The notes under the pieces are model-generated. The model did not search any database. It saw only the letters and a program-made list of their open reading frames with translations, and was not told the origin of the DNA. Of a stretch of DNA of 64,000 nucleotides, positions 792 through 40,515 are shown in pieces (position 1 is the first letter of the stretch; every line of letters starts with the position of its first letter). The position numbers and the translations under genes were made by a program. The stretch spans positions 1 to 64,000 of the forward strand of contig JAQOWU010000004.1 of the NCBI GenBank assembly GCA_030867685.1, read 5' to 3'. The stretch comes from Wickerhamiella versatilis. Lineage: Eukaryota.

Positions 792-1311
792 CAGTGAATA
801 AAATAATCTGAAAGCTGGTTTTTCAGCTTACTTATAACTTTTTTTTACGATGGATCGAGCAGAACGATGACATATCTGATTTACAGCGAGTCAGTACGCC
901 ACTACAAAACAACGTTTGTACTCTCTGGGCTAGAGGATAGCTGTCTATCGATCCGGATTGACCACTTCTAGGAATCTATTGAATGGGATAGGAGCGTTCA
1001 GACCCCAAAATTCGAAGTAATAGGTCATCCGAGGTAAGGGCAGTGACCGGGGGTACGACAAGTACTGTGGGAAATTCAAGAATTAACCCGTAAATGATGG
1101 ACTAAACTTATGCTAATGGCCCATTTTACATGTTTTATTGGAATAGAGTATGATACTGCCATGCAGATATCAGAGAACTGCGCCGAAGCACGTGTCCTGT
1201 ACAGGTTCTCACATACATATCCTTGCCCAATCACTCACCGGGAATCCACCGAATTATCTAACACAATCTACAGGCGGTTTGTGCAAGTCATACGTCATTC
1301 TGGAATGCCTT

Positions 1312-1332
1312 GGGCTATCTTGCATTGTCCAA
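1312..1332 (+). repeat. 41-bp dispersed repeat fragment
   Basis: GGGCTATCTTGCATTGTCCAA, exact match to the consensus unit. Confidence 0.9.
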
Positions 1333-1356
1333 ACCGCTGTATAGCGAGTAGTCGCT

Positions 1357-1396
1357 GATATCTTGCTTTATCTGGCCAGTCTTAGGTAGTGAAGTG
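1357..1396 (+). repeat. 41-bp dispersed repeat, degenerate near-full unit
   Basis: GATATCTTGCTTTATCTGGCCAGTCTTAGGTAGTGAAGTG. Confidence 0.75.
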
Positions 1397-1967
1397 CGCT
1401 AATTCGCGACGCTAACCTTTCTGACAAATCCTTTTCGACTTGTAATAGAAATTGGGATAAGTTCAGGACCCATGCTCTTTAATTGGCATAAGGGGGGACT
1501 CTAAAAATTCCATATTGTCCTAGACACACTTTACTTTACATTAAGTTCGAACGACTTTTCGTTTCTCTAGAAACCAGCTCTTATCAATGTGTGTGGCCAC
1601 ATTTGACTCATATTATTCACCTTGCTCTTCTGATAATATAACGCTATAACACTAAGGTCCCACAGAAGTACTTTAATTTCAATTAAACGCAGATTTATGT
1701 TCGAAACAAGCTTTTCGCAAGCTTATCACCTCCATCTACCTAAGATAAATTGAATATGCTTAGTCATAATAAGTCAGGGTTATTACTCCCTTTGCAGCTT
1801 GTTAAAATGAGTCTCTTACTTACGACGGTCATCTGACTTTTTTCGATAAATCCGTAATCCTCCAAGATGCTCTCGAAATCTCCGATGATATTTTGAAACT
1901 CGCTCACTAATTTTTCCCCGAAGTACTCAGGCTCGCTTCTTGCCGTGGCGTGCAAAATACTGGGATT

Positions 1968-3865: not shown

Positions 3866-3897
3866 CACTTCGCTACCTGACTGTTTGGACAATACAA
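3866..3897 (-). repeat. 41-bp dispersed repeat fragment (degenerate)
   Basis: CACTTCGCTACCTGACTGTTTGGACAATACAA versus consensus CACTTCACTACCTGAGACTGGTTGGACAATGCAA. Confidence 0.7.
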
Positions 3898-13940: not shown

Positions 13941-14000
13941 CTTTCCGGGTTCCTTTCCGGGTTCCTTTCCGGGTTCCTTTCCGGATTCCTTTCCGGATTC
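13941..14000. repeat. Tandem 12-mer CTTTCCGG(G/A)TTC x5
   Basis: Three copies with G followed by two with A, in the divergent promoter region. Confidence 0.95.
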
Positions 14001-14855: not shown

Positions 14856-17800
14856 ATGAAAGTATACGAGTCAATTCAAGCTCTTCCACCTATCCCTAGC
14901 TGCTTGAATTCCATAGTTGGACTATTATCAACTACACCATTTGTGCTCAAATATAACAAGTTGGCCTTCATAGATGGAGTAAGCGGTCAAGGAATCACAT
15001 TCGGCCAGCATAAAAGCCTTATTCCCAGGATAGCTGCCGTATTACATGAAAAATTCGAGATCAGCCAAGGGGATGTGGTGATGCTTGTTGCCAGAAACAA
15101 CATCTTAACACCAGCCATACATCATGCGACGATGTGGCTGGGTGCTGTTATGGCCCCTGTGCATGCTCAGTACAAGTCGGCAGAGCTTGTCCACCATATA
15201 AAGTTGTCAAAGCCTAAGATTCTATTGACTGATGATGTTTCTACTTCCATTGAAGCATGCAAGCTTGCGGAACATAACATAGAGGTTGTCGAATACTCCG
15301 ACTTGGTGCCACGGCTCCTTAACCTGATTGATAACGATGATGCTAAACAAATTGATCCCGTTCCTGTAGGTCTTGATGCCACTGGTGTTCTGTGTTTCTC
15401 ATCAGGCACATCAGGGCTGCCGAAGGCCGTTGAGCTGACTCACTATAACCTGCTTCAACATGCATTTCAAATTAGCCAAATTGGGGCTCCTTACACGGGA
15501 AATGATGATCTCGTCGTAGGTGCGTTTTTACCACTAAGCCATGCTTATGGACTGTATATTTACCAATGGGGTTCAGTTGTACAGGGCAGGACTGTTGTCC
15601 TGTTTAACCGATTTGATTTAGAGGAGATATTGCAAGGATGCTTACATTATGGGGTCGCTATTATTTATACAGTCCCATCTATTCTACTCGTACTTGGTAA
15701 GGATCCCTTAGTCGACCTATATCCGAAGTTCAAGGAACAACTCAAATATGTCATATCATCGGCTGGCAGTTTGTCTAGGTCTAGCGGAGAGGTATTGACT
15801 AAACGAATACCTGGTGTAAATATTATTCAGGCATATGGACTTTCTGAGACGCTTCTTACGTTTACAGGAGTTGATCGTGATGAGTATGACATAGACACTG
15901 TCGGGTGGCTAATCCCGGGCACGCAAGCGCGCCTAGTTAGCCCTGAAACTGGCGATGACGTGCCCTTGGGTGCGTCTGGCGAAATTTGGTTACGCGGACC
16001 ACAAATCATGAAAGGATATCTAGACAACCCAAAAGCCACCGCTGAAACGAAAACCTCGGAAGGGTGGCTGAAAACTGGGGATGTAGCCGTGACTGATGAG
16101 ACTGGCCAATTAAAAATTGTTGGTCGCATAAAAGAGCTTATCAAGTCAAAAGGCTATCAGATTGCCCCGGCAGAACTAGAAGGTATCCTTGTCACCCATC
16201 CTAACGTAATTGATGCGGCTGTTATCGGGGTTCCAGATTCCACAAAGACTACCGAACTTCCTCGAGCATTCTTGGTTCTCCGGGATAAAGCTGATATCTT
16301 TCCCATTATCCAGTGGTTCAACAAAAAAGTGTCACCTCAGAAACGCCTTTCAGGAGGTGGCGTCATCGTGGAAAAGATACCTGTGGGTGCAACAGGTAAG
16401 ATCTTGCGCAATGTCCTTCGAGAGCTCCAGGTCAAACCAGAAGATGTTCAAGGTAGCAACATAGTCGACTTACAGAATATTAACGTTGGCTACTTGAAGA
16501 ATCAGGCACGAGGTTCATCTGTGTTGCAATCAGTCATCGACACCGCTATAACTCTCCTAGGTAACCCAGAGAACGCCAGACCAGACTCGAGTTTTAGTGC
16601 CCTAGGTGGGGATTCACTGATAGCCTTGCAATATGTGAATATATTGCGTGAAATATTCAATATTTCAGTACCTGTGGCATTGGTCACCAGTCCGACCACG
16701 GACCTTCAATCAATTGCAGAACACATCGAACTACATATTGGGGGGTCCAGTACACGGCCGACGTACGAAGATATTCATGTTAATGGCGATAAAGAGGTGC
16801 TGGCTTCAGAATTAACACTAGACAGGTTTATGAGTAGTGCCACACTGGCAAACGCTTCCTCCTTACCACCGGCCAATCCGGAACAACCCCGGGTCATTCT
16901 GTTAACGGGGGCAACTGGCTTCCTTGGAGGCCAACTTGCCTTGGAATTATTAGAGGAGATGGTGAAAGTAGATGGGAAAGTGATCTGCTTGGTCCGCGCA
17001 AAAAGCGAGGCTGAAGCGCGAACTCGATTATACCGCTCTTTTGATAAGGGTAACCATGATTTACTGCAATACTTTAACAGGCTAGCCGATGACCATCTTG
17101 AGGTGCTAGCCGGCGATAAATCTGAGGAGAATCTAGGTCTGGACGAATCCACGTGGCAGAGACTCTCGCATGATGTCGACCAGATTGTTGATTCGGCAGC
17201 ACTCGTCAACCACGTTCTTCCATACTATGAACTTTTCGGTCCCAATGTAGTTGGTACCGCAGAATTGATCCGATTAGCTATTACATCGAAACTCAAGCCA
17301 TTTACCTACGTTTCCACCATTGCTGTCGGCCAAGGAGTGTCACCTAGCGATTTTATCGAGGACAGCGATGTGCGACAAATGAGTTCGTTGCGGAAGATTG
17401 ATAGCAGTTATGCAAATGGCTATGGAACCAGTAAGTGGGCAGGTGAAGTATTGCTTAGAGAAGCTCATGACCTATGTGGGCTTCCTGTTTCGGTCTTTCG
17501 ATCTGGAATGATATTAGCAGGTACAAAGTACTTAGGCCAGATCAATGAAAATGACATGTTCACCAGGATGCTTATGAGCCTGGTCGTGACCGGGATAGCC
17601 CCATACTCCTTTTATGAGCTAGATGCTGGCGGTAGGCGCCAACGGGCTCACTATGCTGGACTACCGGTTGATTTTGTCGCAAAATCAATCACTAAATTGG
17701 GCTCCTCAAGGGAAGGTTTTGCTACATACCATGTGATGAACTGTCACGATGATGGTATCGGGATGGATGAATATGTTGACTGGTTGACTTCTTCAGGTTA

Positions 17801-18077
17801 CCATATCAAGCGGATTCCAGAGTACTCAGAGTGGTTGCAGCAATTCGAAACCAGCTTAAGAAGCCTTCCAGCCAAGCTGCAAGCTGCATCATTACTGCCC
17901 TTGTTACACAATTATCAAAAGCCAGAAGCACCACAATGTGGGTCCACTTATAACAGTGAAGTATTCCGTGAAGCAGTTAAGAAGGCTGAGATTGGGCCAA
18001 CCAAAGACATCCCCACCATTGATCAGTCATTAATCGCCAAATATATAGTGGAGTTGCAACATCTTAACTTGATATAG
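14856..18077 (+). CDS. NRPS-like A-T-R carboxylic acid reductase; 4CL/luciferase-like A domain fused to actinobacterial CAR-like T and R domains
   Basis: A: FSSGTSGLPKAV, QAYGLSE, WLKTGD, GRIKELIKSKGYQIAPAELE, GKILR. T: LGGDSL (Ser codon 16614). R: LLTGATGFLG, AALVNHVLPY, YANGYGTSKWAGEVLLREAHDLCGLPVSVFR. Confidence 0.9.
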   Translation: MKVYESIQALPPIPSCLNSIVGLLSTTPFVLKYNKLAFIDGVSGQGITFGQHKSLIPRIAAVLHEKFEISQGDVVMLVARNNILTPAIHHATMWLGAVMAPVHAQYKSAELVHHIKLSKPKILLTDDVSTSIEACKLAEHNIEVVEYSDLVPRLLNLIDNDDAKQIDPVPVGLDATGVLCFSSGTSGLPKAVELTHYNLLQHAFQISQIGAPYTGNDDLVVGAFLPLSHAYGLYIYQWGSVVQGRTVVLFNRFDLEEILQGCLHYGVAIIYTVPSILLVLGKDPLVDLYPKFKEQLKYVISSAGSLSRSSGEVLTKRIPGVNIIQAYGLSETLLTFTGVDRDEYDIDTVGWLIPGTQARLVSPETGDDVPLGASGEIWLRGPQIMKGYLDNPKATAETKTSEGWLKTGDVAVTDETGQLKIVGRIKELIKSKGYQIAPAELEGILVTHPNVIDAAVIGVPDSTKTTELPRAFLVLRDKADIFPIIQWFNKKVSPQKRLSGGGVIVEKIPVGATGKILRNVLRELQVKPEDVQGSNIVDLQNINVGYLKNQARGSSVLQSVIDTAITLLGNPENARPDSSFSALGGDSLIALQYVNILREIFNISVPVALVTSPTTDLQSIAEHIELHIGGSSTRPTYEDIHVNGDKEVLASELTLDRFMSSATLANASSLPPANPEQPRVILLTGATGFLGGQLALELLEEMVKVDGKVICLVRAKSEAEARTRLYRSFDKGNHDLLQYFNRLADDHLEVLAGDKSEENLGLDESTWQRLSHDVDQIVDSAALVNHVLPYYELFGPNVVGTAELIRLAITSKLKPFTYVSTIAVGQGVSPSDFIEDSDVRQMSSLRKIDSSYANGYGTSKWAGEVLLREAHDLCGLPVSVFRSGMILAGTKYLGQINENDMFTRMLMSLVVTGIAPYSFYELDAGGRRQRAHYAGLPVDFVAKSITKLGSSREGFATYHVMNCHDDGIGMDEYVDWLTSSGYHIKRIPEYSEWLQQFETSLRSLPAKLQAASLLPLLHNYQKPEAPQCGSTYNSEVFREAVKKAEIGPTKDIPTIDQSLIAKYIVELQHLNLI

Positions 18078-19229: not shown

Positions 19230-20204
19230 ATGGTACATTTCAACTACAAAGCAGCAGTTGTACAGGCGGCACCGGAATTCTTGGACCTTGATGCCTCTGT
19301 AAGTAAAGTCATCAGGCTCATTAATGAAGCTGCGTCGGCTGGAGCAAAGCTAATTGTGTTTCCTGAATGCTATATTCCGGGTTATCCATGGTGGATCTGG
19401 GTGATGACTCCCGCTGCTGCTATTGAAAAGGGGTTCGTGAGTCGTTACTACGATAATTCCCTTACTTCTGATAGTCTTCACTCCAAGAAGCTACAGGCAG
19501 CCATTGCGGAAGCGGGGATTACCGTAGTGCTTGGGCTGACAGAACGTATTGGTAACTCATTGTATATCGCGCAATGGACGATTAGTTCAGAAGGAACAAT
19601 CGTCAAGCGTCGACGTAAACTGAAAGCGACACATTGTGAACGCTTTGTATTTGGTGAGGGCGACGGCAGTGATATTTCTGTAAAGGAACTACCTGGCATC
19701 GGGAAATTGGGGGCTTTGAGTTGCTGGGAACATATACAGCCCCTAGTGAAATATGCAATGTATTCTCAAGAAGAACAAGTACATGCCGCGGCCTGGCCGA
19801 GCTTTTCGGTTTATACCAATCTTACATCGTCGCTCAGTACAGATGTCAATACTGCAGTGGCTAGAACGTATGCAATTGAAGGCGGGTGCTTCGTGCTTTC
19901 CTCCTGTGCCACAGTTTCTGACAAAATGATCGACGAGCTTTGTGGGGATGATCCTGAAAAGCTGAGGCTTCTTCAAGCAGGAGGAGGGGCTGCGAGAATC
20001 TATGGCCCAGATGGTACCGAACTCGCCGAGCCGTTAGCACCCAACGATGAAGGGATTTTGTACGCAGAGGTTAATAGCCGGTTCATTGATATCGCTAAGA
20101 GTACTGCTGACCCTATAGGCCACTATTCGCGCCCCGATGTCCTCCGATTAATGTTCAATCCTGAGAAACAGGAAAGAGTTGAGGATTTCACAGAAGAGCC
20201 TTAA
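19230..20204 (+). CDS. Nitrilase (carbon-nitrogen hydrolase, branch 1)
   Basis: Catalytic triad motifs VFPECYIPGYP, RRKLKATHCER, LSCWEH; C-terminal DPIGHYSRPDVL. Confidence 0.92.
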   Translation: MVHFNYKAAVVQAAPEFLDLDASVSKVIRLINEAASAGAKLIVFPECYIPGYPWWIWVMTPAAAIEKGFVSRYYDNSLTSDSLHSKKLQAAIAEAGITVVLGLTERIGNSLYIAQWTISSEGTIVKRRRKLKATHCERFVFGEGDGSDISVKELPGIGKLGALSCWEHIQPLVKYAMYSQEEQVHAAAWPSFSVYTNLTSSLSTDVNTAVARTYAIEGGCFVLSSCATVSDKMIDELCGDDPEKLRLLQAGGGAARIYGPDGTELAEPLAPNDEGILYAEVNSRFIDIAKSTADPIGHYSRPDVLRLMFNPEKQERVEDFTEEP

Positions 20205-22600: not shown

Positions 22601-24180
22601 TTACGTTGCATAAAGAAACCTGGGATTAAGGTCGCCTGCCATTACCTTATCCTCGAAACTCAGTCTCTCCCAATTAGAGTCTTCTTTTCCATCCCGTCTG
22701 CGTTTGTTAACGCAGATTATCCCTAAAAAATAAACTGTGCACGTTACGAGAGAAAATACCATAAGAGCCAAACAAGTCCATATACCTCGTGAATAGTTGG
22801 GCGCATCCTGAGGTCGAAAAATGAATGATGATACGATGCCTCCTATATTTGCGAACCCCACAATCCAAGCAGAGCTTACTAACTTTCGATAATGTCCAGC
22901 GAAGTTCATACTCGTCCAGCAAACTATGATTGACATAAGACTGATTGCTCCAAGTATAATAAGGAAGCAAGCAACATACCTTGGGTGACTATTGGCAGGA
23001 TTTCCATTTGAGTCAACGGCATCGAATCCCAGAAGCAAGGAGAAACCTGCAATAGAAATCAGCCCAGTAAAGATGGTAAAGAGGTAGCGATGTTGTAGGA
23101 AATCTGAAAGAGCACCAATAATAATGGCACCGCCAAAGCTTGTCAACCATGGGTATATGGAGTAAGCCTGTACACTTACAGGATCGTCTTGCAACGTTTT
23201 GATGATGCTTGTTGCAAAATATGCGTAACTGTACGACCCAACAATCACTCCGAAGTACATTGCACCCCCAACGAATACTTTCCAGTCTTTGAAAACAGAA
23301 AGAATATCTCTAAGGGTTACTTTCGCATTAGCCAAAGATTTGCCTTGATCTAGCTGGTGCTTACGAATTTGGTATTTCCGCTCGTTCTCTGTCAGAAATT
23401 TCGCATCCTCAGGAAAGTCAGCTATGAGGAAGAATAAGATCATGCCACAAGCACAGGTGATCGCACCTTCAATGATGAAGATCCAAAGCCAGCCTGCTAT
23501 TCTCTGCTTTCCATCCAGCGTGTTCATGCCATATGCAATTAGTCCGGCGAAAGCTCCAGCTAGAGATGTCGAGCCATAGAAAAAACAAAATCGCTTGAGT
23601 GCCTCTCTTCGGAGAAGCCATCCTCCTAGAAGATAGAAACAACCAGAGAGCATCCCAGCCTCGAATAAACCGAGAAGGGTTCGTGTCGTATAAAGGGCAC
23701 ATTTCGAAGTCACAAACCCCTGGCCAATCGTGATTCCACCAAAGCATATGATACACAAAGAGAGCCATACGTGAGGCTTCAAGAGCTTAAGCAGGTAATT
23801 TGCTGGGACCTCAAAAACAACATATGGACAGTAAAATAAGGCCAGCGCAACATTGAGTCGATTTCCTTCAAGGTTAGCCCCTCTCATATATTTTCCACCT
23901 GGCTGAGGTCCCGAAGAGATACATACGTTTTGGCATTACTGATATTAACGCGATCAATGAAGCTCAAAAAGTACAGAAGACAAATAGGCAGCACGATCCA
24001 ACAGTCGATCTTTAGTTGAAGCTTCCAGGGAGTTATTTCATATTCTTTTGCTAATTCTTGAACAGTCTTATCAGTTTCCACCGTATTTTGAAACCTAAAG
24101 TTTTCCTCTTCTGTAGATTTAGTGGTAATATGCAAGTTGGATTCTGTGCTGGGGGGCGAGATCTTTCTTCTACTATCCAT
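22601..24180 (-). pseudogene. Frameshifted Tna1-like MFS (ACS family) transporter, paralog of 29693-31276
   Basis: ORFs 23884-24180 and 22601-23887 are the N- and C-parts. Against the paralog there are 8 instead of 9 nt after KTY (~23920), i.e. a 1-nt deletion. Confidence 0.8.
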
Positions 24181-25222: not shown

Positions 25223-26848
25223 ATGTCCGACACGTGCGAAAGAGATTATACATGTGCGGAGCCGGAGTTAGGAAGAGGAGCGGAGGAAAAAGTCACCACG
25301 AATGTGACGAATTCTAAAATAGATACACTCCACTTAGTTCAACATGCGGAAAATGCTGATCAAGCAATGAAATATGCACATAACAGTCATGAGTTCGACC
25401 AGGTTGGCAGGGACATAGAACGGAAATTAAAGCGAAAAACTGACTTGTTTGTGATGCCTCTGCTTATTATTATATATGCATTACAGTTTGCAGATAAGGT
25501 ATCAAACGGAGGAGCTTCAGTAATGGGCCTGCGCTCGGATCTAAACATGAAGGGAAACATGTATTCATGGGTTGGGGTAAGTTTTTATCTCGGCGAGATT
25601 GTGGGACTCATCTTTGTTTGGTCTCTTATCCAGAAATTCCCAGCTGCAAAGTTAACAGCAACCATGATTACTGCGTGGGGAGTAATCATGGCCTGCTCTG
25701 CTGCCAGCCAAAATTACGCCGGATATATCGCATGCCGCGTTTTACTTGGAATGGTAGAGGGAGTTGTGACGCCAGCCTTCTCTTTAATCACAACACAGTG
25801 GTATCGTCGAGATGCTGGTGAACAGTTTTCACGCACAAACTTTTGGTTTGGAGCCAATGGTATCGGCTTAATTATTGGCACATCCCTGGCTTATGGTTTC
25901 TACATACGCGATTCGTCTACCATAGCCGGATGGCGTGGTCTTTTCATCTGTCTTGGCTGCATGACAATTGTTTTTGGGATCGTGTTTTTTGTTCATATCC
26001 CCGATGACCCTTTAAAAGCGTGGTTTCTAACTGACGATGAAAAAATGTGGCAAGTTGAACGTATCCGTCGCAACAATAAGGGATTTGGTAGCCATCATAT
26101 TAAATCATATCAAATCAGAGAATGTCTCAAAGATTTACGTTGGTATCTGTATATGGCAATAATGTTTTTGGGCTGTATACCTATCGGAGGACTGACCAAC
26201 TTTGGCACTATCATCCTTGGGGGTATCATTAAGGGAAATGCTGTACCAGTAATAGAAGGGGACCCCAGAATGAACGATATTTCAGCTCGTTCCCTACTCA
26301 TGCAGTTGCCACAGGGCGGTACATCGTTTGTTGGGTGTGTACTGGTTGGTGTGGCCTCTTCATATATTCTTAAAAATTACAGAACACTTTACGGAGTATT
26401 TATCGGCATGATCAATATATTAGCGTTCTGTTTTCTTGCATGGGGATTCAATTCGGGTAGCAGGCTTTTTGGTCTCTACACTTGTGTATGGAGTAGTACT
26501 GCTTTGCTTATCGTAAATCTCTCGTGTATTCAATCAAATATGGGAGGGACAACAAAGACTCTAGTGGCAACAGCTAGCTGCATGCAGTTTTACTGCTGTG
26601 GTAACGCTCTAGGTTCAAGCGACGCTCTTTTTAAGCCGTCCGAAGAACCAGATTATCATACAGCCAAGGTAACCATGGCAGCATGTGCTTGCATTCAGAC
26701 ATTCCTCATAGCAAGTCTTTATGTAGTGTACCTGGTTGAAAACAAATTGCGTGACCGAAAAAATGAAAAACTTCCACCAGGCATTGATCATCCTGAATTT
26801 GCTGATCTCACAGACATGGAAAACCCCGAATTCAGATACGTTTATTAG
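25223..26848 (+). CDS. Allantoate/ureidosuccinate permease-like MFS (Dal5 family)
   Basis: LQFADK, LGMVEGVVTPAFSLITTQWYRR, PDDPLKAWFLT, C-terminal EFADLTDMENPEFRYVY. Confidence 0.85.
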   Translation: MSDTCERDYTCAEPELGRGAEEKVTTNVTNSKIDTLHLVQHAENADQAMKYAHNSHEFDQVGRDIERKLKRKTDLFVMPLLIIIYALQFADKVSNGGASVMGLRSDLNMKGNMYSWVGVSFYLGEIVGLIFVWSLIQKFPAAKLTATMITAWGVIMACSAASQNYAGYIACRVLLGMVEGVVTPAFSLITTQWYRRDAGEQFSRTNFWFGANGIGLIIGTSLAYGFYIRDSSTIAGWRGLFICLGCMTIVFGIVFFVHIPDDPLKAWFLTDDEKMWQVERIRRNNKGFGSHHIKSYQIRECLKDLRWYLYMAIMFLGCIPIGGLTNFGTIILGGIIKGNAVPVIEGDPRMNDISARSLLMQLPQGGTSFVGCVLVGVASSYILKNYRTLYGVFIGMINILAFCFLAWGFNSGSRLFGLYTCVWSSTALLIVNLSCIQSNMGGTTKTLVATASCMQFYCCGNALGSSDALFKPSEEPDYHTAKVTMAACACIQTFLIASLYVVYLVENKLRDRKNEKLPPGIDHPEFADLTDMENPEFRYVY

Positions 26849-27152
26849 ATTAGATTTCGTTGGCTCTAGCATATAACCATTGACATATTACTCAACATGT
26901 TAGATAGAGGTAAATTTTGCAAAGATAGCCCACTTTTAGCTTTATATATTCCGCTTATATCAAAAAGCTTGGAAATTTTGTGGGGTCATTTCATCGTGTG
27001 TGCGGATTAGTAATGTTAAGTTCATGTTAAGTCTGGTCGGCAGTTATCTATGTATATCCCTTAGCCCATAGCAATCGTTAGCCCATGTCCTGTATAGCAT
27101 TACACTGCTCGAGAAATAAAGTTATAAGGTCATAAGTTAGAGATTGATGAAT

Positions 27153-27590
27153 TTAAGATATTTTTGTTTCATTTTTTATAAGAATACTCAGACACGAAGT
27201 AATCAAAGCTATAATAACAATGAAGGCGACAATTATTGAGATCCTTGCTGCAGGATATAGTCCACATAGAAGTGCCTTTTGGGTTGAAAAGTATCTCAAG
27301 GTCCCAATAATAGAGAATATTAGCCCAATGACAATAAATAAGATTCCGATGATCTGCCCAGCCCTCTGGAATTCCCCCATACGTCCCACATGGCCATTTA
27401 GTTGAAAAAGTTGGGTAACGACGACACCTGCACTGACTGCAGTAAGACCTGTTCTCATCCAAGCAAGAAATGTCCTCTCATTGGCAAGATGGTCTCGAGC
27501 AACACTATTATGGTTTTCCAGGTAAAGCTCTAGCTCGAGCCCCTTCATGAAGGTTAGTAACACATCGACATCCATGTCAAAATTGTCCAT
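27153..27590 (-). CDS. DUF202 (YidH/Vtc1-like) 3-TM membrane protein
   Basis: ARDHLANERTFLAWMRT plus three hydrophobic segments. Confidence 0.85.
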   Translation of the reverse strand: MDNFDMDVDVLLTFMKGLELELYLENHNSVARDHLANERTFLAWMRTGLTAVSAGVVVTQLFQLNGHVGRMGEFQRAGQIIGILFIVIGLIFSIIGTLRYFSTQKALLCGLYPAARISIIVAFIVIIALITSCLSILIKNETKIS

Positions 27591-27604
27591 AGACGTTACT
27601 ATTA

Positions 27605-27949
27605 TTAGACCCTGGCTATTATAATTATAAGGGCAATGTATGACCCAATCGTAAATGCCGAATTAATGGCGACTAAACGGCCACCGGTGATAAATTTCTT
27701 GAAGCTTGAAGCCTCAAATTCGCGTTCAACACGAAAGGAGTGATATAAAGCAAAGCAAATATTTAATATAGCATGTATTGTGAGTACAAGGGCAACCGGT
27801 ACATACTCCTTTGCGAAGAGTCTCAGAATGAGGAGCGCCAACGAGATTTCCGAGAAAAAAGCGCGAGCATACGTTCCCTCAAATGTTCTATAAGACGCTC
27901 GAATATCTTGGCGAACGCTTTTTGGCAACACGCCGATTTCTGAAGGCAT
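27605..27949 (-). CDS. Divergent DUF202-like 3-TM membrane protein
   Basis: IRASYRTFEGTYAR (variant of the RTF..Y/W.R motif) plus three TM segments. Confidence 0.65.
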   Translation of the reverse strand: MPSEIGVLPKSVRQDIRASYRTFEGTYARAFFSEISLALLILRLFAKEYVPVALVLTIHAILNICFALYHSFRVEREFEASSFKKFITGGRLVAINSAFTIGSYIALIIIIARV

Positions 27950-28333
27950 TAAGAGGGAAAGCTTACATACCTTAGATGTAACATTTCTCTATAGCTAAGA
28001 GGATTATTACTAATATTCTCCCTTGGATTTCTTTTGTGTGTTTAGTTTTGTCGTGCTCATAGAATTTGGATACTTCCAGTATTCAAATTATTGTAATTGA
28101 GAATAATATAGCTGTTTCATCGATGTTATCGCAGTTAGTGCGGAGATTGGAGCCGCAATCAGTCCGGAGAGGCCCATGTAGATACACACTCACTCACTGA
28201 GGCGCGTATGATTGTTGCCACAGCTCAACTCAAATAGTTACTGTGGCAGTCGATATACAGCCAACAGAATAATGTAGGAAGGAATAACATAAATCAACTT
28301 CTTGCTCATTTTTGCCCCGCCTCTCATCAGGCT

Positions 28334-28379
28334 TTGGACAAATTTGCGTAGCCCATATATGGCTATCTTGCACTGTCCA
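28334..28379. repeat. Inverted pair of 41-bp repeat fragments
   Basis: TTGGACAAATTTGCGTAGCCCA (-, degenerate), spacer TATAT, GGCTATCTTGCACTGTCCA (+). Confidence 0.7.
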
Positions 28380-28446
28380 CATGTATATATAATTTATCAA
28401 GACTAATATACAGTATCAAAGGTACGCTCCCCAAGTACGTGGTGCC

Positions 28447-28472
28447 GTGGGCTATCTTGCATTGTCCACCAG
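28447..28472 (+). repeat. 41-bp repeat fragment capping the left end of a duplicated segment
   Basis: GTGGGCTATCTTGCATTGTCCACCAG. Confidence 0.95.
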
Positions 28473-28794
28473 ATATTGATCATCCTGAATTTCCACAGAC
28501 ATGGAAAACCCCGAATTCAGATACGGCTATTAGATAAGATTTCGTTGGCTCTAGCACATAATCATTGAGATGTTACTCAACATGTTAGACAGAGGTGAAA
28601 TTTGCAAATGTTTAGCTTTCTATATCTCGCTTACATCACAATGCTTGGAAATTTTGTAGGGTCATTTCATCGTGTGAGCGGATAAGTAATGTTGAGTTCG
28701 TTAAGTCTGGTCGGCAGTTATCTATGCATATCCCTTAACCCATATCAATCGTTAGCCCATGTCCTGTATAACATTACATTGCTTGAGCAACAAA
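28465..28794 (+). repeat. Diverged direct copy of 26773-27120 (3' end and 3' flank of the Dal5-like gene)
   Basis: Shared blocks ATTGATCATCCTGAATTT, CACAGACATGGAAAACCCCGAATTCAGATACG, GTTAAGTCTGGTCGGCAGTTATCTATG, AATCGTTAGCCCATGTCCTGTATA. Confidence 0.95.
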
Positions 28795-28851
28795 TGCAAC
28801 ATAGCCCACTTCACTAACTGAGACTGCTTGGACATTGCAAGATAGTCCACT
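28793..28851 (-). repeat. 41-bp repeat, ~1.4 tandem units capping the right end of the duplicated segment
   Basis: AATGCAACATAGCCCACTTCACTAACTGAGACTGCTTGGACATTGCAAGATAGTCCACT. Confidence 0.95.
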
Positions 28852-29692
28852 GGCCAGCAAAATTCACACGTTAAATGTTCAAACTGTCAGTATTAAAAAA
28901 AACAATGCTGGTTGGATATATCCACGAATGCAACGCTGGCACAAACAGTAGCAATGTGTCAACGGAGAGCCGCCGCATTTTTGGAATTCGTATAAGTACA
29001 AGTTAACCCAAGAAGTTGATTACAAGCATAGCGTGCGCCGAGGTGGAGATGTATTTACCCCACACAAGATAGTTTGTTATCGCGTGAATAACATCGCATG
29101 TATTGATTAATTTATCTCGAAGTTACCAGTCTCTATCGCTACTCGTTGAACAAGGATATATTTATAATCCCGGAGAAGAATTCTAACATTACGTTGCCAA
29201 AATTCGAAGTATAAGAGCATCAATGTAATTGCTAAGAATAAAAACGATCTAGAGATAATATTGAAAAAAAGCAATTCGAAGAATACTAGTTAGCGGTTGC
29301 AATTGCCAAAAATTAGGAGGTATAAGCTCCGGTTTACTTCATACTACCCCATGATTGTGGTTGAGATAACACTAAAGATAAATCATAATTATAGATCCAA
29401 CTTTACATATTATCACAGACAAAGCAGTTACATAGCACATAACTTGAACCTCGCCGATTCTCTGGGGCAGAAAATCAATACTGAACCGCATAGAACACGC
29501 TGCGTCTCCGCCACGTTTTCGAACGCTTTCAACCATCCGGGACTATCAAGAAATCGTGCCTTAGATGCGAGGGAAAGGATAAAATAGCGTAGAATTAATT
29601 ATGGTGAGGCATGGAAAGTCTTGTCGAGGTGCTGCTGGCAGAACTTACTTTAGCGATAAATGCGGTTAGGTTCAAGTGGGGCTACACAAGGC

Positions 29693-31276
29693 TTAAAGCG
29701 CGTAGACAAATTGAGGGTTTATGTCTCCAGCGAGTGCCTTCTGATCATCGCTCAATTTGTCCCAGTCGTCATTTTCCGCACCCGTACTCCGGCGTTTGTT
29801 AACAAGATATACTCCAAAGAAATAAACAGTAGTCGCTGCGAGAGAAAATAACATCAGTGCAAGACAAGTCCAAGCTCCCCGTGAATATTTCGGAGCATCT
29901 TGAGTCGTAAAAATGAAAGCTGAGACAATTCCACCGATATTTCCAAACCCAACAATCCAAGCAGAGCCCACCATCTTACGATGGTGACCAGCTAGGTTCA
30001 TAATCGTCCAGCAAATCATAATTGGCATGAAACTGTATGTTCCAAGGGTCACCAAGAAGCATCCGGCATATCGAGCGTTTACATTCGTGGGGTTCCCGTC
30101 AGAATCGACAGGGTTAATGCCGATAAGCATGGCAAACCCAGCAATGCATATGATGCATGTAAGGATGGTAAACAGAAAGCGGTGCCTTAAATAGTCAGAT
30201 ATAACCCCAAAGATAATACTACCTCCGAAGCTCACGAGCCAGGGATAAATAGAATATACTTGAACGGAAACTGGGTCCTGGTGCATAGTCTGAATAATAG
30301 ATGTTGCAAAATACGCATAGCTGTATGCTGCCACGACAGATCCAAAGTACATAACAGCCGCAGCATGTACCTTCCAGTCCTTCAAAACTGACAACATATC
30401 TGAAAGAGTGACATCTCGACGAGCCAACGAACGACCCTGATCTAGTTGCAGCTTGTGGACCTGGTAAGCGCGTTCATTTTCAGATAAGAACTTTGCATCT
30501 TCCGGAAAATCTGCTATCAAGAAGAACAGTATAATTCCGCAAGCACACGTAATAGCACCCTCGACGATGAAAATCCATCTCCATCCAGCTATCGATTGTT
30601 TTCCTTCCAATGTATTCATTCCATATGCAATTAGCCCCGCAAAAGCGCCCGCCAAGGAAGTTGATGCAAAGAAGAAGCAATAACGTTTAAGAGCCTCATC
30701 TCGCCGAAGCCAGCCTCCCAGAAGATAAAAGCATCCGGGGAACATTCCAGACTCGAGAAGTCCTAGCAATACTCGGGTGGTATAAAGACCGCCCTTGGAA
30801 GTAACGAAACCTTGGGCAATTGTGACTGCTCCGAAACATATGATGCACAGGGAAAGCCAGACATGTGGTTTCAGTTTCTTGAGCAACCAATTTGCTGGGA
30901 TTTCAAAAACAACATATGGACAGAAAAACAGCGCTAGAGCAACATTAAATTGATTTCCTTCAAGGTTCGCACCTCCCATATATCGCCCTCTTGGATCAGG
31001 CCCACTATTCAAGCCATAGGTCTTTGCATTACTGATATTAACACGGTCGATGAAGCTAAGTAAATATAAGAGACAGATGGGGAGAAAAATCCAGCAATCT
31101 ACCTTCAGCTGAAGCTTCCATGGTGTCACCTCATAATCCTTTTGCAGTTTTCGAAGAGTATCGTCTACTTCAGTTTTACTGGGTAGTCTGAAACTATCTC
31201 CATCGTTCATTTCGCTAGCATCACTTGGTTGCGTCTCCATAGGTTCCACTTTTCCCTTCTGAGGGCTAGACGACAT
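29693..31276 (-). CDS. Tna1-like MFS (ACS family; nicotinate/organic-anion permease-like)
   Basis: LSFIDRVNISNAK, YVVFEIPAN, GLLESGMFPG, GWRWIFIVEG, DFPEDAKFL, C-terminal LAGDINPQFVYAL. Confidence 0.85.
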   Translation of the reverse strand: MSSSPQKGKVEPMETQPSDASEMNDGDSFRLPSKTEVDDTLRKLQKDYEVTPWKLQLKVDCWIFLPICLLYLLSFIDRVNISNAKTYGLNSGPDPRGRYMGGANLEGNQFNVALALFFCPYVVFEIPANWLLKKLKPHVWLSLCIICFGAVTIAQGFVTSKGGLYTTRVLLGLLESGMFPGCFYLLGGWLRRDEALKRYCFFFASTSLAGAFAGLIAYGMNTLEGKQSIAGWRWIFIVEGAITCACGIILFFLIADFPEDAKFLSENERAYQVHKLQLDQGRSLARRDVTLSDMLSVLKDWKVHAAAVMYFGSVVAAYSYAYFATSIIQTMHQDPVSVQVYSIYPWLVSFGGSIIFGVISDYLRHRFLFTILTCIICIAGFAMLIGINPVDSDGNPTNVNARYAGCFLVTLGTYSFMPIMICWTIMNLAGHHRKMVGSAWIVGFGNIGGIVSAFIFTTQDAPKYSRGAWTCLALMLFSLAATTVYFFGVYLVNKRRSTGAENDDWDKLSDDQKALAGDINPQFVYAL

Positions 31277-32479: not shown

Positions 32480-32502
32480 AGTGGGATATCTTGCAAGATA
32501 GC
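32480..32502. repeat. Two opposed 41-bp repeat fragments fused through the TGCA palindrome
   Basis: AGTGGGATATCTTGCA overlapping TGCAAGATAGC. Confidence 0.6.
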
Positions 32503-34172: not shown

Positions 34173-34215
34173 CTTCACTACCTGAGACTGGTTGGACAGT
34201 GCAAGTCACTTCACT
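34173..34215 (-). repeat. 41-bp repeat unit with an internal deletion
   Basis: CTTCACTACCTGAGACTGGTTGGACAGTGCAAG-TCACTTCACT. Confidence 0.92.
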
Positions 34216-34417: not shown

Positions 34418-34459
34418 AGCCCACTTCACTACCTGAGGCTGGTTGGAAAATGTAAGATA
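34418..34459 (-). repeat. 41-bp repeat, full unit in a different permutation
   Basis: AGCCCACTTCACTACCTGAGGCTGGTTGGAAAATGTAAGATA. Confidence 0.92.
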
Positions 34460-34850: not shown

Positions 34851-35951
34851 ATGCCAAGATATGTCCTTCGCACATTGGTCTTAACCTGGGCTATAGCTCT
34901 CACATTGCTAGCATTACTCGCTGGAAATTCATTTTATCAAAATAAAGATTATGAGGGCTACAAGGGCCTTGGAATGCCCACCAGGCCGAGAAGTGCATCT
35001 AGCCAATTTGCATCAACCACAAATGACACAATGGGATTTTCTGAGATAGCCTTTATCCGGTTACCTCATAGATATGATCAAGAAGATGTAATGACTTTTC
35101 AGGGCATATTAGCAAAGCTTAAGTATAAGTCCTATGATGCTGTTGACAGTCAAGATGTCGAAAAAGACTATCGCGGTCTACCCCCGGCCAGGTCTCAAGA
35201 TCTAAGTTCATCGGAGCTGGCATGTATTAGATCACATGCTAATGTATGGCAAAAAATGCTACAAAATAATTATTTATCAGTTCTCGTCCTAGAAGGTGAT
35301 GCGACTTTCGATGTCGATATACGCGATCAAACGTTCCGACTGGCAAGGGCCTTTCAAGATCTTCTGTCCTCCCTGAATTTGATAGTAAATAATACGGATG
35401 AGGATCCTTGGAATTGCGAAAGCTGGGATATCTTGAATTTTGGGGCTTGTTTCGAAGGCGGGGAATTTTCGAATCTCTATAGGACATATGATGATCCTGG
35501 CACTCCATCTATATTATATGACTATCCAGAGACCAATACCGCCTTTGAGACTAAAGAAGGAGAAAGGATAGTTCGGCGGAGTGGGCGACCAATATGCACG
35601 ACAGGCTATGGGATTAGCCGTCGCGGCGCACTCAAGATGCTCCTAAGGATGTCACTGGAAAGTTCACGGGCTTTAGATCTCGTAATGGCCCAGGAAAACC
35701 TCAAAGGCACTGTTGAGTCTTACACAGTATGGCCCCCATTAATACATCAATGGGAATATAAGGATGGAGTCAATACTCAGAGCTCTGACATTCATAATGT
35801 TGACAAGAATGAAGATTATGATCCAAATATATGGAAAGATGTATTTCTGCAAGCGAATGTCTGGCAAGTGAGAAAAGAATATCAACAGTGGCACATGAAC
35901 AACTGGACACTAGCTCAAATAGGACGAGAATCGGGATTAGCATTCGTCTGA
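34851..35951 (+). CDS. Glycosyltransferase family 25-like (paralog 3)
   Basis: N-terminal TM; NDTMGFSEIAFIRLPHRYD, ACIRSHANVW, LVLEGDA, CTTGYGISRRGALKML. Confidence 0.82.
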   Translation: MPRYVLRTLVLTWAIALTLLALLAGNSFYQNKDYEGYKGLGMPTRPRSASSQFASTTNDTMGFSEIAFIRLPHRYDQEDVMTFQGILAKLKYKSYDAVDSQDVEKDYRGLPPARSQDLSSSELACIRSHANVWQKMLQNNYLSVLVLEGDATFDVDIRDQTFRLARAFQDLLSSLNLIVNNTDEDPWNCESWDILNFGACFEGGEFSNLYRTYDDPGTPSILYDYPETNTAFETKEGERIVRRSGRPICTTGYGISRRGALKMLLRMSLESSRALDLVMAQENLKGTVESYTVWPPLIHQWEYKDGVNTQSSDIHNVDKNEDYDPNIWKDVFLQANVWQVRKEYQQWHMNNWTLAQIGRESGLAFV

Positions 35952-36303: not shown

Positions 36304-39300
36304 CTAGTGGAGCAGAACTATCGCAAGAGCTATAGCCGTGAACATACCCTTAACCGGTTCCAGTGAATGTCCAGAATTTGCTACCTCAGGAACTGAATTC
36401 GAGGGCTGGGCAACACTAGGAGCATTATTCGATTCAATGGCTTGTGAAGCCGATGCGGGTCCACTAGATGATGAGGCCGCTGAGCCTGAAGGCTGAGCAA
36501 CACTAGGAACATTATTTGATTCAATGGCTTGTGAAGCCGATGCGGGTCCACTAGATGATGAGGCCGCTGAGCCTGAAGGCTGAGCAACACTAGGAACATT
36601 ATTCGATTCAATGGCTTGTGAAGCCAAAGCTGGTCCAATGGTTAATGTTGGGACCGCTGAGCCAGAAGGCTGATTGCTTAGAGCTTCGGCTACACTACCA
36701 GTCTGAGTACAGTCGCAATCCTCTAGGGTGAGGGTGGTAGCTTGCGTAACCGTGTACGTTGTACCGCCATATGCAAACGTAGTAGGACTGGGACAAGGGA
36801 TAGTGGTATACTTGGTACTCTCAGCTGTTACAGTAGTGCCTTCAAATACATTAGGGGTCTCTACAGTGACCTCGGGAACGGTGTAAGTCCTACCACCACT
36901 GGTGATCACCTCATTGGTGCTGATAGTAGTAGGAGCCGTACCAGTGTAGCCAATGGTAGTGGTCACACCCGGAATACCATTGGTGGGGGTCTCGACGGTG
37001 ACATCTGGAACAGGGTAGATCTTGCTACCGCTAGTCATCACCTCATTTGTGCTGATGGTGGTGGGCGCTGTGCCAGTGTAGCCAATGTTGGTGGTCTCGC
37101 CTGGGAAGTTCCCAAGAGGGGTATATGTCATGGATAACGATACATTTTCACTGCGTGAGATGCTGCTACTTCTGATAACTGGTGGGACATTCTGACTAGA
37201 CTTCATAGTCGGAGTCTCGACGGTGACATCTGGAACGGTGTAGATCTTGCTACCGCTAGTGATCACCTCATTTGTGCTGATAGTGGTGGGCACAGACCCA
37301 GTGTAGCCAATGGTGGTAGTCTTACCCGGAATACCATTGGTGGGGGTCTCGACGGTGACATCTGGAACAGTGTAGATTTTACTACCACTATTGATCCCCT
37401 CATTTGTACTGATAGTGGTGGGCACAGAACCAGTGTAGCCAATGGTGGTAGTCTTACCCGGAATACCATTGGTGGGGGTCTCGACGGTGACATCTGGAAC
37501 AGTGTAGATCTTGCTACCGCTAGTGATCACCTCATTTGTGCTGATAGTAGTGGGAGTGGTGCCAGTGTAGCCAATGGAGGTAGTCTCACCTGGAATACCA
37601 TTGGTAGGGGTTTCGACAGTGACATCTGGAACAGTGTAGATCTTGCTACCGCTAGTAACCACCTCATTTGTGCTGATAGTAGTAGGAGTGGTGCCAGTGT
37701 AGCCAATGGAGGTAGTCTCACCTGGAATGCTATTGGTGGGGGTCTCGACGGTGACATCTGGAACAGTGTAGATCTTGCTACCGCTAGTGTTCACCTCATT
37801 TGTGCTGAGAGTAGTAGGATAACTACCTGTCCATGCAACCGTAGTGGTCTCACCTGGAATACCATTGGTAGGGGTCTCGACGGTGACATCTGGAACAGTG
37901 TAGATCTTGCTACCGCTAGTGATCACCTCATTTGTGCTGATAGTGGTGGGCACAGAACCAGTGTAGCCAATGGTGGTAGTCTTACCCGGAATACCATTGG
38001 TGGGGGTCTCGACGGTGACATCTGGAACAGTGTAGATCTTGCTACCGCTAGTGATCACCTCATTTGTGCTGAGAGTAGTAGGATAACTACCTGTCCATGC
38101 AACCGTAGTGGTCTCACCTGGAATACCATTGGTAGGGGTCTCGACGGTGACATCTGGAACAGTGTAGATCTTGCTACCGCTAGTGATCACCTCATTTGTG
38201 CTGATAGTAGTGGGAGTGGTGCCAGTGTAGCCAATGGAGGTAGTCTCACCGGGAATACCATTGGTAGGGGTTTCGACAGTGACATCTGGAACAGTGTAGA
38301 TCTTGCTACCGCTAGTGATCACTTCATTTGTGCTGATAGTGGTGGGCACAGACCCAGTGTAGCCAATGGTGGTAGTCTTACCCGGAATACCATTGGTGGG
38401 GGTCTCGACGGTGACATCTGGAACAGTGAAGATCTTGCTACCGCTAGTGATCACGTCATTTGTGCTGAGAGTAGTAGGATAACTACCTGTCCATACAACC
38501 GTAGTGGTCTCACCTGGAATACCATTGGTGGGGGTCTCGACGGTGACATCTGGAACAGTGTAGATCTTGCTACCGCTAGTGATCACCTCATTTGTGCTGA
38601 TAGTGGTGGGCACAGAACCAGTGTAGCCAATGGTGGTAGTCTTACCCGGAATACCATTGGTGGGGGTCTCGACGGTGACATCTGGAACAGTGAAGATCTT
38701 GCTACCGCTAGTGATCACGTCATTTGTGCTGAGAGTAGTAGGATAACTACCTGTCCATACAACCGTAGTGGTCTCACCTGGAATACCATTGGTAGGGGTC
38801 TCGACGGTGACATCTGGAACAGTGTAGATCTTGCTACCGCTAGTGATCACCTCATTTGTGCTGATAGTGGTGGGCACAGAACCAGTGTAGCCAACGGTGG
38901 TAGTCTTACCCGGAACACCATTGGTGGGGGTCTCGACGGTGACATCTGGAACAGTGTAGATCTTGCTACCGCTAGTGATCACTTCATTTGTGCTGATAGT
39001 AGTAGGATAACTACCTGTCCATGCAACCGTAGTGGTCTCACCCGGAACACTATTGGTGGGGGTCTCGACGGTGACATCTGGAACAGTGTAGATCTTGCTA
39101 CCGCTAGTGATCACGTCATTTGTGCTGAGAGTAGTAGGATAACTACCTGTCCATGCAACCGTAGTGGTCTCACCTGGAATACCATTGGTAGGGGTTTCGA
39201 TGGTGACATCTGGAACAGTGTAGATCTTGCTACCGCTAGTAACCACCTCATTTGTGCTGATAGTAGTGGGAGTGGTGCCAGTGTAGCCAATGGAGGTAGT

Positions 39301-40515
39301 CTCACCGGGAATACCATTGGTGGGGGTTTCGACAGTGACATCTGGAACAGTGTAGATCTTGCTACCGCTAGTGTTCACCTCATTTGTGCTGATAGTGGTG
39401 GGCACAGAACCAGTGTAGCCAATGGTGGTAGTCTTACCCGGAATAACATTGGTGGGGGTCTCGACGGTGACATCTGGAACAGTGTAGATCTTGCTACCGC
39501 TAGTGATCACCTCATTTGTGCTGATAGTAGTAGGAGTGGTGCCAGTGTAGCCAATGGAGGTAGTCTCACCTGGAATACCACTGGTGGGGGTCTCGACAGT
39601 CACATCTGGGACAGTAAAGGTCCGATCATATGTGGTTTTCAACTCATTCTTACTGAGGGTGGTAGGAAATGTTCCCGTCCACGCAACCGTAGTCGTTTCA
39701 CCTCCTGCCGTTGGAGTTTCAATAATTTCAACTGGTGTCGTTGAACTACCCTGTGGGACTTCTGTAACAAACGTAGTAGTAAATGTTCCCTGCCATGGCA
39801 ACGTACTCGTTTTAACTGGACATTCTTGCTTACTCCAATCGATCTGATATAAATTCTCGAGTGGGCTATATGAGTCACTTCCAGGCTTCATCACCGAGAT
39901 ATTGAGACGCGATTGCGTTAAGCGGTTCACATAAACTAACTCCATCGGATACACAAGATTACTATCCAGTTCAACAGAAAGTCTCGCACCATCTAAGGTG
40001 GCAAACAAATCAAACTTGTTGCCTACATTCTGGCTCACATTTTCACAGCATGCACGAGCACCTCCTAGTCGCAAGCCCGCGTCATCGTCAGCTTCCAGGT
40101 AAAACGTGTAAATACCTGAGGTTGGAGGTATATAGTAAGCCGTCATATTCATAGTAAAGTTGGTTATGGTGATATCGTTTCCAAACACATTACTATAGGC
40201 GGTATACCACCATTGTTGCAAGCTATTGTTATAGTAGTTCCAATACAACGAATTCCCTTCGATACCAGTCGCTGAAATCTGGTTGCCTTGATCATCATTA
40301 TAAGGGCCAAAATGTCCGAAGTCTGCAGTAATCTTACGAAGGTCGTTGTCGTAAAGTTCAACACCAACCTCCCATTTCCAATAGTCAACATTGAATCCGC
40401 GTGACCCTAACTCAAGGGGTCTGGTGCATCCATTCACGGACACGCTGCTGGAACTCTCAGCCAACACAGACGGGATGGTCTGAAGTAGCAATACAATACG
40501 ACTTAAGGGGCCCAT
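36304..40515 (-). CDS. Flocculin/adhesin: signal peptide, PA14/GLEYA-type lectin domain, Thr-rich repeat stalk, GPI signal
   Basis: TAYYIPPTSGIYTFYLEADDDA (DD Ca2+ motif), VYPMELVYVN; 44-aa repeats ending TVPDVTVETPT; hydrophobic C-terminus. Confidence 0.92.
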   Translation of the reverse strand: MGPLSRIVLLLQTIPSVLAESSSSVSVNGCTRPLELGSRGFNVDYWKWEVGVELYDNDLRKITADFGHFGPYNDDQGNQISATGIEGNSLYWNYYNNSLQQWWYTAYSNVFGNDITITNFTMNMTAYYIPPTSGIYTFYLEADDDAGLRLGGARACCENVSQNVGNKFDLFATLDGARLSVELDSNLVYPMELVYVNRLTQSRLNISVMKPGSDSYSPLENLYQIDWSKQECPVKTSTLPWQGTFTTTFVTEVPQGSSTTPVEIIETPTAGGETTTVAWTGTFPTTLSKNELKTTYDRTFTVPDVTVETPTSGIPGETTSIGYTGTTPTTISTNEVITSGSKIYTVPDVTVETPTNVIPGKTTTIGYTGSVPTTISTNEVNTSGSKIYTVPDVTVETPTNGIPGETTSIGYTGTTPTTISTNEVVTSGSKIYTVPDVTIETPTNGIPGETTTVAWTGSYPTTLSTNDVITSGSKIYTVPDVTVETPTNSVPGETTTVAWTGSYPTTISTNEVITSGSKIYTVPDVTVETPTNGVPGKTTTVGYTGSVPTTISTNEVITSGSKIYTVPDVTVETPTNGIPGETTTVVWTGSYPTTLSTNDVITSGSKIFTVPDVTVETPTNGIPGKTTTIGYTGSVPTTISTNEVITSGSKIYTVPDVTVETPTNGIPGETTTVVWTGSYPTTLSTNDVITSGSKIFTVPDVTVETPTNGIPGKTTTIGYTGSVPTTISTNEVITSGSKIYTVPDVTVETPTNGIPGETTSIGYTGTTPTTISTNEVITSGSKIYTVPDVTVETPTNGIPGETTTVAWTGSYPTTLSTNEVITSGSKIYTVPDVTVETPTNGIPGKTTTIGYTGSVPTTISTNEVITSGSKIYTVPDVTVETPTNGIPGETTTVAWTGSYPTTLSTNEVNTSGSKIYTVPDVTVETPTNSIPGETTSIGYTGTTPTTISTNEVVTSGSKIYTVPDVTVETPTNGIPGETTSIGYTGTTPTTISTNEVITSGSKIYTVPDVTVETPTNGIPGKTTTIGYTGSVPTTISTNEGINSGSKIYTVPDVTVETPTNGIPGKTTTIGYTGSVPTTISTNEVITSGSKIYTVPDVTVETPTMKSSQNVPPVIRSSSISRSENVSLSMTYTPLGNFPGETTNIGYTGTAPTTISTNEVMTSGSKIYPVPDVTVETPTNGIPGVTTTIGYTGTAPTTISTNEVITSGGRTYTVPEVTVETPNVFEGTTVTAESTKYTTIPCPSPTTFAYGGTTYTVTQATTLTLEDCDCTQTGSVAEALSNQPSGSAVPTLTIGPALASQAIESNNVPSVAQPSGSAASSSSGPASASQAIESNNVPSVAQPSGSAASSSSGPASASQAIESNNAPSVAQPSNSVPEVANSGHSLEPVKGMFTAIALAIVLLH
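36404..36625 (-). repeat. 87-bp (29-aa) coding repeat, ~2.5 copies
   Basis: SQAIESNNVPSVAQPSGSAASSSSGPASA. Confidence 0.85.
37207..39700 (-). repeat. 132-bp coding minisatellite, ~19 tandem units (2 more at ~36850-37110)
   Basis: The GTCTCGACGGTGACATCTGGAAC-type marker recurs every 132 nt from ~37213 to ~39589. Confidence 0.95.

Follow-up and report, generated by a model that had tools for sequence, protein, structure and literature searches.

The addition of repeats to DNA ends and the capture of DNA pieces at chromosome breaks are both known processes. In Cryptococcus and Histoplasma, telomeres are seeded on linear transforming DNA, and de novo telomere addition accounts for chromosome healing. 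In these cases telomerase acts on 3′ ends that are not telomeric, among them the two ends of free linear DNA, and the products remain chromosome ends or linear plasmids. In Saccharomyces cerevisiae, chromosome breaks capture Ty1 cDNA, mitochondrial DNA and other genomic pieces by end joining; to our knowledge, these captures carry no repeat added on the fragment ends. Pack-type and foldback transposons have inverted termini around a captured gene fragment. Finally, three papers on vertebrates (PMC2246262, PMC8537989, PMC7215372) describe telomere repeats that are made by telomerase and inserted at sites of break repair.

Here we analyze a stretch of 64,000 nt from Wickerhamiella versatilis (positions 1 to 64,000 of contig JAQOWU010000004.1, assembly GCA_030867685.1; hereafter, the window). 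As a whole, the window is a compact yeast-like sequence with 42.9% G+C. It contains a duplicated gene fragment capped at both ends by pieces of a 41-nt unit. With the vertebrate insertions, the locus shares short internal repeats that can be taken for sequence added to broken ends before end joining, as well as the reasoning from filled and empty sites. It differs from them in the repeat itself (a 6-nt unit in vertebrates, a 41-nt candidate unit here, with 0.3–2.2 units per piece and roughly one piece per 2 kb), and also in having head-to-head pairs of pieces and a fragment capped at both ends. The likeness to telomere seeding and healing would lie in the extension of both ends of a free linear DNA; however, here the capped piece is internal and has at most 1.4 units per end. 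As in the captures of S. cerevisiae, a few hundred bases appear to have been ligated into an intergenic break with little homology at the junctions. Inverted termini around a gene fragment are reminiscent of Pack-type and foldback transposons, but at this locus there is no target-site duplication or shared interior, the pieces are mostly solitary and very short, and head-to-head pairs occur. In the literature that we searched, neither a yeast with such insertions nor an integrated fragment capped at both ends is described.

The original prediction regarded 28465-28794 as a copy of 26773-27120. A repeat search of the window, MAFFT and blastn concordantly bear this out. The segments concerned and the four collinear ungapped blocks that join copy and source in the repeat search (89–93% identity) are as follows.

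26773..27120, + strand: source segment, the last 76 nt of ORF 25223-26848 and 272 nt downstream
28465..28794, + strand: duplicated fragment, intergenic, with a 7-nt deletion in the coding part
28381..28446: spacer, 66 nt between a head-to-head pair of unit pieces and the left cap, with no second copy in the window
26773-26800 / 28465-28492: block D9, 93% identity
Block D1: 91% identity
Block D3: 89% identity
27026-27120 / 28700-28794: block D2, 92% identity

ORF 25223-26848 codes for 541 residues and is homologous to MFS transporters, a number of which bear the name allantoate permease. Alignment of the two copies by blastn gives 85.3% identity over 340 columns, gaps included, and MAFFT agrees. 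Judged by its sequence, the fragment is an old copy (85–93% identity to the source) and does not look functional. The source lies on the same chromosome, 1.7 kb upstream, and is not foreign DNA; this is the sole captured piece with a traced source. The fragment has its source elsewhere, and its junctions are sharp and lack long homology, as expected of capture by end joining. When 12 segments were compared with the window in a search for other duplicates bracketed by unit pieces, a second copy was found for the 28465-28794 fragment and for none of the others.

To describe the caps we numbered the positions (registers) of the unit such that the final C of ..CCCAC is register 41.

28447..28468, − strand: left cap, registers 20-41, 22 of 22 positions identical to the unit consensus, overlapping the host end
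28793..28851, + strand: right cap, 1.4 units (registers 25-41, then 1-41), 91.5% identity to the consensus

The anatomy is the one initially proposed, that is, outward-pointing repeat pieces at both ends, about 1.4 units of them on the right, and a common stop. Two inverted arms (28447-28468 and 28829-28850) lie exactly at the ends of the duplicate and, being 22 nt long and 91% complementary, are good enough to count as terminal inverted repeats. On the right, the 41-nt period is evident from copies at 28798 and 28839. The left cap prolongs the bottom-strand 3′ end of the fragment and the right cap its top-strand 3′ end. Both point outward, represent the same strand of the unit and end at ..CCCAC (register 41). 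The source copy of the fragment carries no caps, a comparison that is paralogous.

The two junctions differ in how well the host end matches the unit. The left host end had been noted as a near match, and indeed CTGGTGGA, which is present in the source too, fits the unit's CTGGTTGGA in register. Eight of nine positions match the unit here, in register with the added part, and a match as good as this one in any register was obtained for only 3.6% of 20,000 random ends. At the right junction exact microhomology amounts to only 2 nt, or to 4/5 with a slip.

The original prediction spoke of 41-bp repeats. This holds insofar as there is a real, dispersed family of partial units, but the window has no tandem array of them: Tandem Repeats Finder lists no period-41 array within it. 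We derived a consensus as the majority of window matches to the unit at 28810-28850 and scanned the window with it. The scan yielded 21 pieces at E≤0.01, 23 at E≤0.1, 29 at E≤1 and 33 at E≤5, compared with means of 0, 0, 0.2 and 1.25 pieces, respectively, in 20 dinucleotide shuffles. A 15-nt core of the unit, with up to two mismatches allowed, occurs 13 times versus 0.09 expected (100 shuffles, largest count 1). The pieces are found on both strands at a density of about one per 2.2 kb of window and are 12–59 nt long, except for a longer one at 1311-1401.

1311..1401, − strand: longest piece, about 2.2 degenerate units, ending at register 40/41
34173-34205 and 34418-34459, + strand: two forward pieces, 212 nt apart, the intervening segment without a source in the window

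All but one of 29 pieces lie outside ORFs of at least 200 aa, although such ORFs make up 48.9% of the window (p 1e-7), as would be expected of insertion scars. Flanks are unrelated between pieces, and tandem run-on reaches up to 2.2 units and no further, which fits a short internal template. The unit strand of the consensus contains 9 G and 11 C in 41 positions and is not G-rich.

Exact scans with a 22-nt core of the unit gave no matches in metagenome, prokaryote-genome and viral contigs. A gapped two-anchor pattern returned 23 loci in metagenome contigs, none of them with a unit match of more than 13 nt, and we consider these hits to be due to chance. Two 11-nt strings of the unit, searched in literature text, retrieved only unrelated papers. 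A structured RNA or hairpin element is unlikely, since no Rfam family matches within the window and none of five folded stretches is better than its shuffles (z −0.89 to +1.04). A regulatory motif was rejected because the pieces are variable-length partial units with a common end and tandem continuation.

The pieces have a pronounced polarity. Their 3′ ends fall into registers 37-41/1-3 in 16 of 29 cases (5.7 expected; binomial p 2e-5), and into registers 31-41/1-3, one third of the unit, in 25 of 29 (p 1e-8). In contrast, 5′ starts are spread, with only 2/29 in registers 37-41/1-3; a second mode of starts, at registers 33-41, is followed by about one full unit. On the fragment 3′ ends, both caps carry the same strand of the unit and end at register 41, within the preferred range. 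Several pieces are paired, and one is located inside the source of the fragment.

28334-28355 (+, degenerate) / 28361-28379 (−): head-to-head pair, meeting at the ..CCCA ends, 67 nt left of the fragment
3862-3897 (+) / 3901-3914 (−): second head-to-head pair, 3 nt apart
32480..32501: outward-facing pair, arms overlapping at TTGCAA, nothing between
63564-63601 (−) / 63715-63738 (+): outward-facing pair around 113 nt without a source in the window
26922..26935, + strand: unit piece in the source, 11-12 nt, registers 30-41, ending at ..CCCAC

The degenerate piece at 28334-28355 is confirmed by the two-anchor pattern (two matches versus none in 100 shuffles). In both head-to-head pairs the ..CCCAC ends meet or nearly do so. 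Such pairs are expected if both ends of one break were extended and then joined. Pieces also tend to cluster, with four of them within 28334-28851, for example; this suggests that the junctions are complex and made of multiple pieces, or that the same spots broke repeatedly. At the site of the piece in the source, the duplicate has three other bases (about 28606-28608). The two paralogs therefore provide filled and empty sites in both directions: 26922-26935 is present in the source only and the caps at the duplicate only. The site being filled in the source and empty in the duplicate argues that the pieces are insertions and not ancestral motifs. Genes located between outward-facing pieces (e.g. 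1402-3861 and 3915-5322, each with a GT25 gene) were rejected as evidence, since about 30 pieces in mixed orientation produce such brackets by chance.

Contigs assembled from sequencing runs (X1, X4, X7 and X9) provide a further view of the family. X1 corresponds to the same or nearly the same strain (0.91 of sampled words; no differences over kilobases). Its contigs display the polarity of the pieces at other places of that genome. In six X1 contigs the match ends exactly at 28447, the ..CCCAC end of the left cap. At the opposite end of this cap, 28468 is prolonged by the next part of the unit in nine contigs. Eight contigs prolong 34205 by what is left of the unit, as far as ..CCCAC, and lose their consensus beyond it. 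The upstream loose-end consensuses of pieces agree only at 0.46–0.73. Bins of the window that contain pieces have 10–25 times the summed X1 contig depth of neighbouring bins, depths not being equivalent to copy numbers. In X4 and X7, whose contigs are about 3–16% divergent from the window where aligned, such bins are likewise far above their neighbours, pointing to a multi-copy unit family there too. The one X1 contig that resembles a unit-to-unit junction (joint 34452->34173) has a depth of 241 versus about 150 for single-copy contigs. No high-copy tandem unit array is seen among the X1 contigs, which are poor witnesses for arrays. Other X1 joints hint at further head-to-head and outward-facing pairs, weakly so, as their sides are 20–33 letters at 80% likeness.

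Two sites in these data are of separate interest. The segment 34206-34417 (212 nt) interrupts two forward pieces that are otherwise nearly continuous, and in one X1 contig (depth 28.6 versus about 150) 34205 is followed, after one letter, by 34417. The segment may be a polymorphic insertion, or the joining contig may come from another locus. As for the surroundings of the fragment, contigs of X4, X7 and X9 leave 27105-28318 and 28926-29532 uncovered and none of them bridges the insert; these contigs yielded no orthologous empty site. A joint 28855->29627 (depth 10.2 in X7 and 9.7 in X1; side 49) may mean that a relative has other sequence on the right-hand side of the cap, which has no bearing on the insert.

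The original prediction explained the capped fragment by a free linear DNA that gained sequence at its two 3′ ends and was subsequently ligated into the chromosome. This scheme is supported in part: the anatomy fits it, as do the shared 3′ register (25 of 29 pieces), the head-to-head pairs, the filled and empty sites and the in-register microhomology on the left. The variable 5′ starts, the common 3′ stop, the limit of 2.2 units and the attachment to both 3′ ends of the fragment point to primer extension on a short bounded template. We give about an even chance to the reading in which 3′ ends, at breaks and on the free fragment alike, were lengthened before end joining by a reverse transcriptase whose template has a fixed boundary, the most likely candidate being a telomerase that uses a long template. 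We infer both the 3′ extension and the end-joining route, and the identity of enzyme and template calls for the most caution of all.

According to this primer-extension reading, the 41-nt unit would be a templated product on DNA 3′ ends, made by a reverse transcriptase that stops at the ..CCCAC boundary. The enzyme would most likely be the W. versatilis telomerase, its template comprising one unit and about 10 nt of terminal redundancy. A loose 330-bp piece would have come from 1.7 kb away, either as a copy or by breakage. The 3′ ends at breaks and on the loose piece would anneal to the template by a few bases and gain 0.3 to 2 units, whereupon end joining would reseal the break. In this way the 330-bp fragment, extended at both 3′ ends, would have been ligated into an intergenic break. 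The head-to-head pair at 28334-28379 might stem from the same complex event or from an earlier break at that spot. A broader proposition is that in this lineage internal breaks and free linear DNA routinely have their 3′ ends lengthened by telomerase or by a comparable enzyme whose internal template measures about 50 nt, and that the capped pieces are then end-joined, leaving a scar about every 2 kb in variable regions. We put this forward tentatively, as possible rather than probable.

Telomerase is the established enzyme for this kind of bounded primer extension, and budding-yeast telomerases add one or few repeats per binding event. Known telomerase products, however, are usually G-rich, and the extended strand here is not. 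The lack of a period-41 array in the window and of a high-copy tandem contig in X1 also speaks against telomerase, as does the right junction, where exact microhomology is limited to 2 nt. Furthermore, the density of unit pieces is orders of magnitude above that of vertebrate interstitial telomeric insertions, and such an extreme density would suit a mobile element better. As to the length of the unit, the telomere motif of Pichia norvegensis, as given in a passage of PMC7857110, is 43 nt, which places 41 nt within the range of yeast telomerase products; the comparison between the two concerns their length. Neither these genera (Wickerhamiella and Starmerella) nor a matching motif was found in passages of PMC7857110, PMC6115765, PMC6746865 and PMC12449055. 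Passages of PMC13376923 and PMC12983215 report that telomere repeats were found and do not include the motif sequence; for the clade, PMC13376923 states that telomere motifs were searched with word sizes of 5–60 nt.

The alternative that survives best dispenses with extension of a free fragment altogether. It assumes that the caps pre-existed as inverted dispersed copies and that a copy of the fragment was placed in the interval through microhomology-mediated template switching or gap repair, the source being entered at ..TCCACCAG.. and left at ..ACAAA. An outward-facing pair with nothing between its arms does exist (32480-32501), and the weak X1 joints 28465/28470->34173 suggest further ones. 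The 8/9 homology of the left junction with the source is also in line with template switching, and so is the distance to the source of merely 1.7 kb, since a nearby source is typical of templated filler DNA. However, template switching leaves unexplained the origin of the family, the shared 3′ register and the head-to-head pairs, and the exact homology at the right junction is only 2 nt. We therefore consider it unlikely.

Less likely still, in our estimation, is a non-autonomous DNA transposon of the foldback or Pack type that contains subterminal 41-nt repeats and has taken up a host fragment; the caps would be its terminal inverted repeats and the solitary pieces decayed ends. Inverted termini of 22 nt at 91%, constant outer and variable inner ends, a high-copy family piled up in X4 and X7 contigs too, and the intergenic location of the pieces would all suit such an element. 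Yet inspection of the flanks revealed a target-site duplication at none of three outward-facing pairs, and a transposase domain was present in none of 20 window ORFs scanned against Pfam. Most pieces are solitary, and with sizes from 12 to 91 nt they share no common internal sequence. The two head-to-head pairs and the solitary insertion of 11 nt would be hard to generate by transposition. Should the unit be part of a mobile element after all, that element is unusual and very small.

A reverse transcriptase of a retroelement or a repair polymerase might instead have extended the ends on the 5′ end of some other abundant, repeat-bearing RNA, in a form of RNA-templated break repair, the 3′ stop then representing run-off. 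The register, orientation and microhomology evidence is equally compatible with run-off, and a product strand that is not G-rich counts in its favour. We nevertheless give it a slim chance, below that of a transposon, as there is no Rfam match in the window and no such RNA is known here. Moreover, pieces longer than one unit require a repeat-bearing RNA or translocation, and translocation is a hallmark of telomerase.

The slimmest chance goes to repeats made at true telomeres. Telomeres that were very short or had broken off, among them a tiny linear molecule with two healed ends, would later have fused to other ends, and the pieces would be scars of these fusions instead of extensions at internal breaks. 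Head-to-head pairs do resemble telomere-telomere fusions and a constant outer end could be a natural terminus, but about 20 fusions fixed within 64 kb would be required, and the scenario is hard to tell from primer extension by telomerase because end healing by the same enzyme is still needed. Copies of a 5′-truncated non-LTR retroposon were rejected, given that the longest piece has 2.2 units and that there is no common body and no poly(A) or simple tail.

Should the broader proposition of routine extension at breaks and on free DNA be true, it would offer a physical route by which stray DNA, foreign DNA possibly among it, could be captured in a clade known for horizontal gene transfer. Passages of PMC13376923 attribute to the Wickerhamiella/Starmerella clade the most horizontally acquired genes among yeasts, together with a deficit of DNA-repair genes. 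It has long been asked how yeast chromosomes acquire foreign DNA, a question that a route of capping and ligation would make directly testable. If the unit is a telomerase product, the frequency with which the enzyme acts on internal breaks and free DNA would be undescribed for yeasts in the literature searched. The unit is also long and information-rich, so that the start of priming, the stop of synthesis and the joined ends can be read for each event at base level.

The window contains several genes of families that are typical of bacteria or mainly prokaryotic.

1968-3317 (−), 4202-5275 (+), 34851-35951 (+): GT25 glycosyltransferases, three distant paralogs
55768-57462, − strand: galactarate-dehydratase-like (TIGR03248, E 9e-105, below the cut-off)
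14856-18077, + strand: carboxylic-acid-reductase-like (NF041592, E 2e-257, below the cut-off)
19230-20204, + strand: nitrilase-like

Glycosyltransferase family 25 is known mainly from bacterial LPS synthesis, and the galactarate-dehydratase-like, carboxylic-acid-reductase-like and nitrilase-like families are mainly prokaryotic. The three GT25 paralogs have 31–38% protein identity and no DNA similarity; their horizontal acquisition is possible. Within the window, we found no sound evidence that the bacterial-type genes were captured via the capped-fragment route.

Other features of the window can be summarized briefly. For the mitochondrial carrier at 54097-55143, the best named matches are from Starmerella bombicola (60%), Magnusiomyces (58%), Starmerella bacillaris (57%) and Blastobotrys (55%), and another relative reaches 73%. 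These matches point, if only weakly, to a position near the Wickerhamiella/Starmerella clade of the Dipodascales. Pfam searches at E≤0.001 assigned no family to ORFs 9938-11104 (+, 388 aa) and 60087-61481 (+, 464 aa). The MFS gene at 29693-31276 (−, 527 aa) has a paralog at 22601-24180 (−) that is split into overlapping ORFs 22601-23887 and 23884-24180, and is either a frameshifted pseudogene or a gene with an unrecognised intron. The DUF202 membrane protein at 27153-27949 (−) is likewise represented by two adjacent ORFs (27153-27590 and 27605-27949), which possibly form a single gene interrupted by a short intron or a break. A 1403-aa ORF at 36304-40515 (−) includes a 132-bp unit repeated in tandem about 18 times (86% matches) and an 87-bp array, and looks like a repeat-rich cell-wall or adhesin-type gene. 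Its arrays are located as follows.

36404-36673: first array in ORF 36304-40515
36854-37096: second array
37214-39615: third array

Finally, an intergenic 12-bp tandem repeat is present in five copies (97% matches) at 13941-14000.
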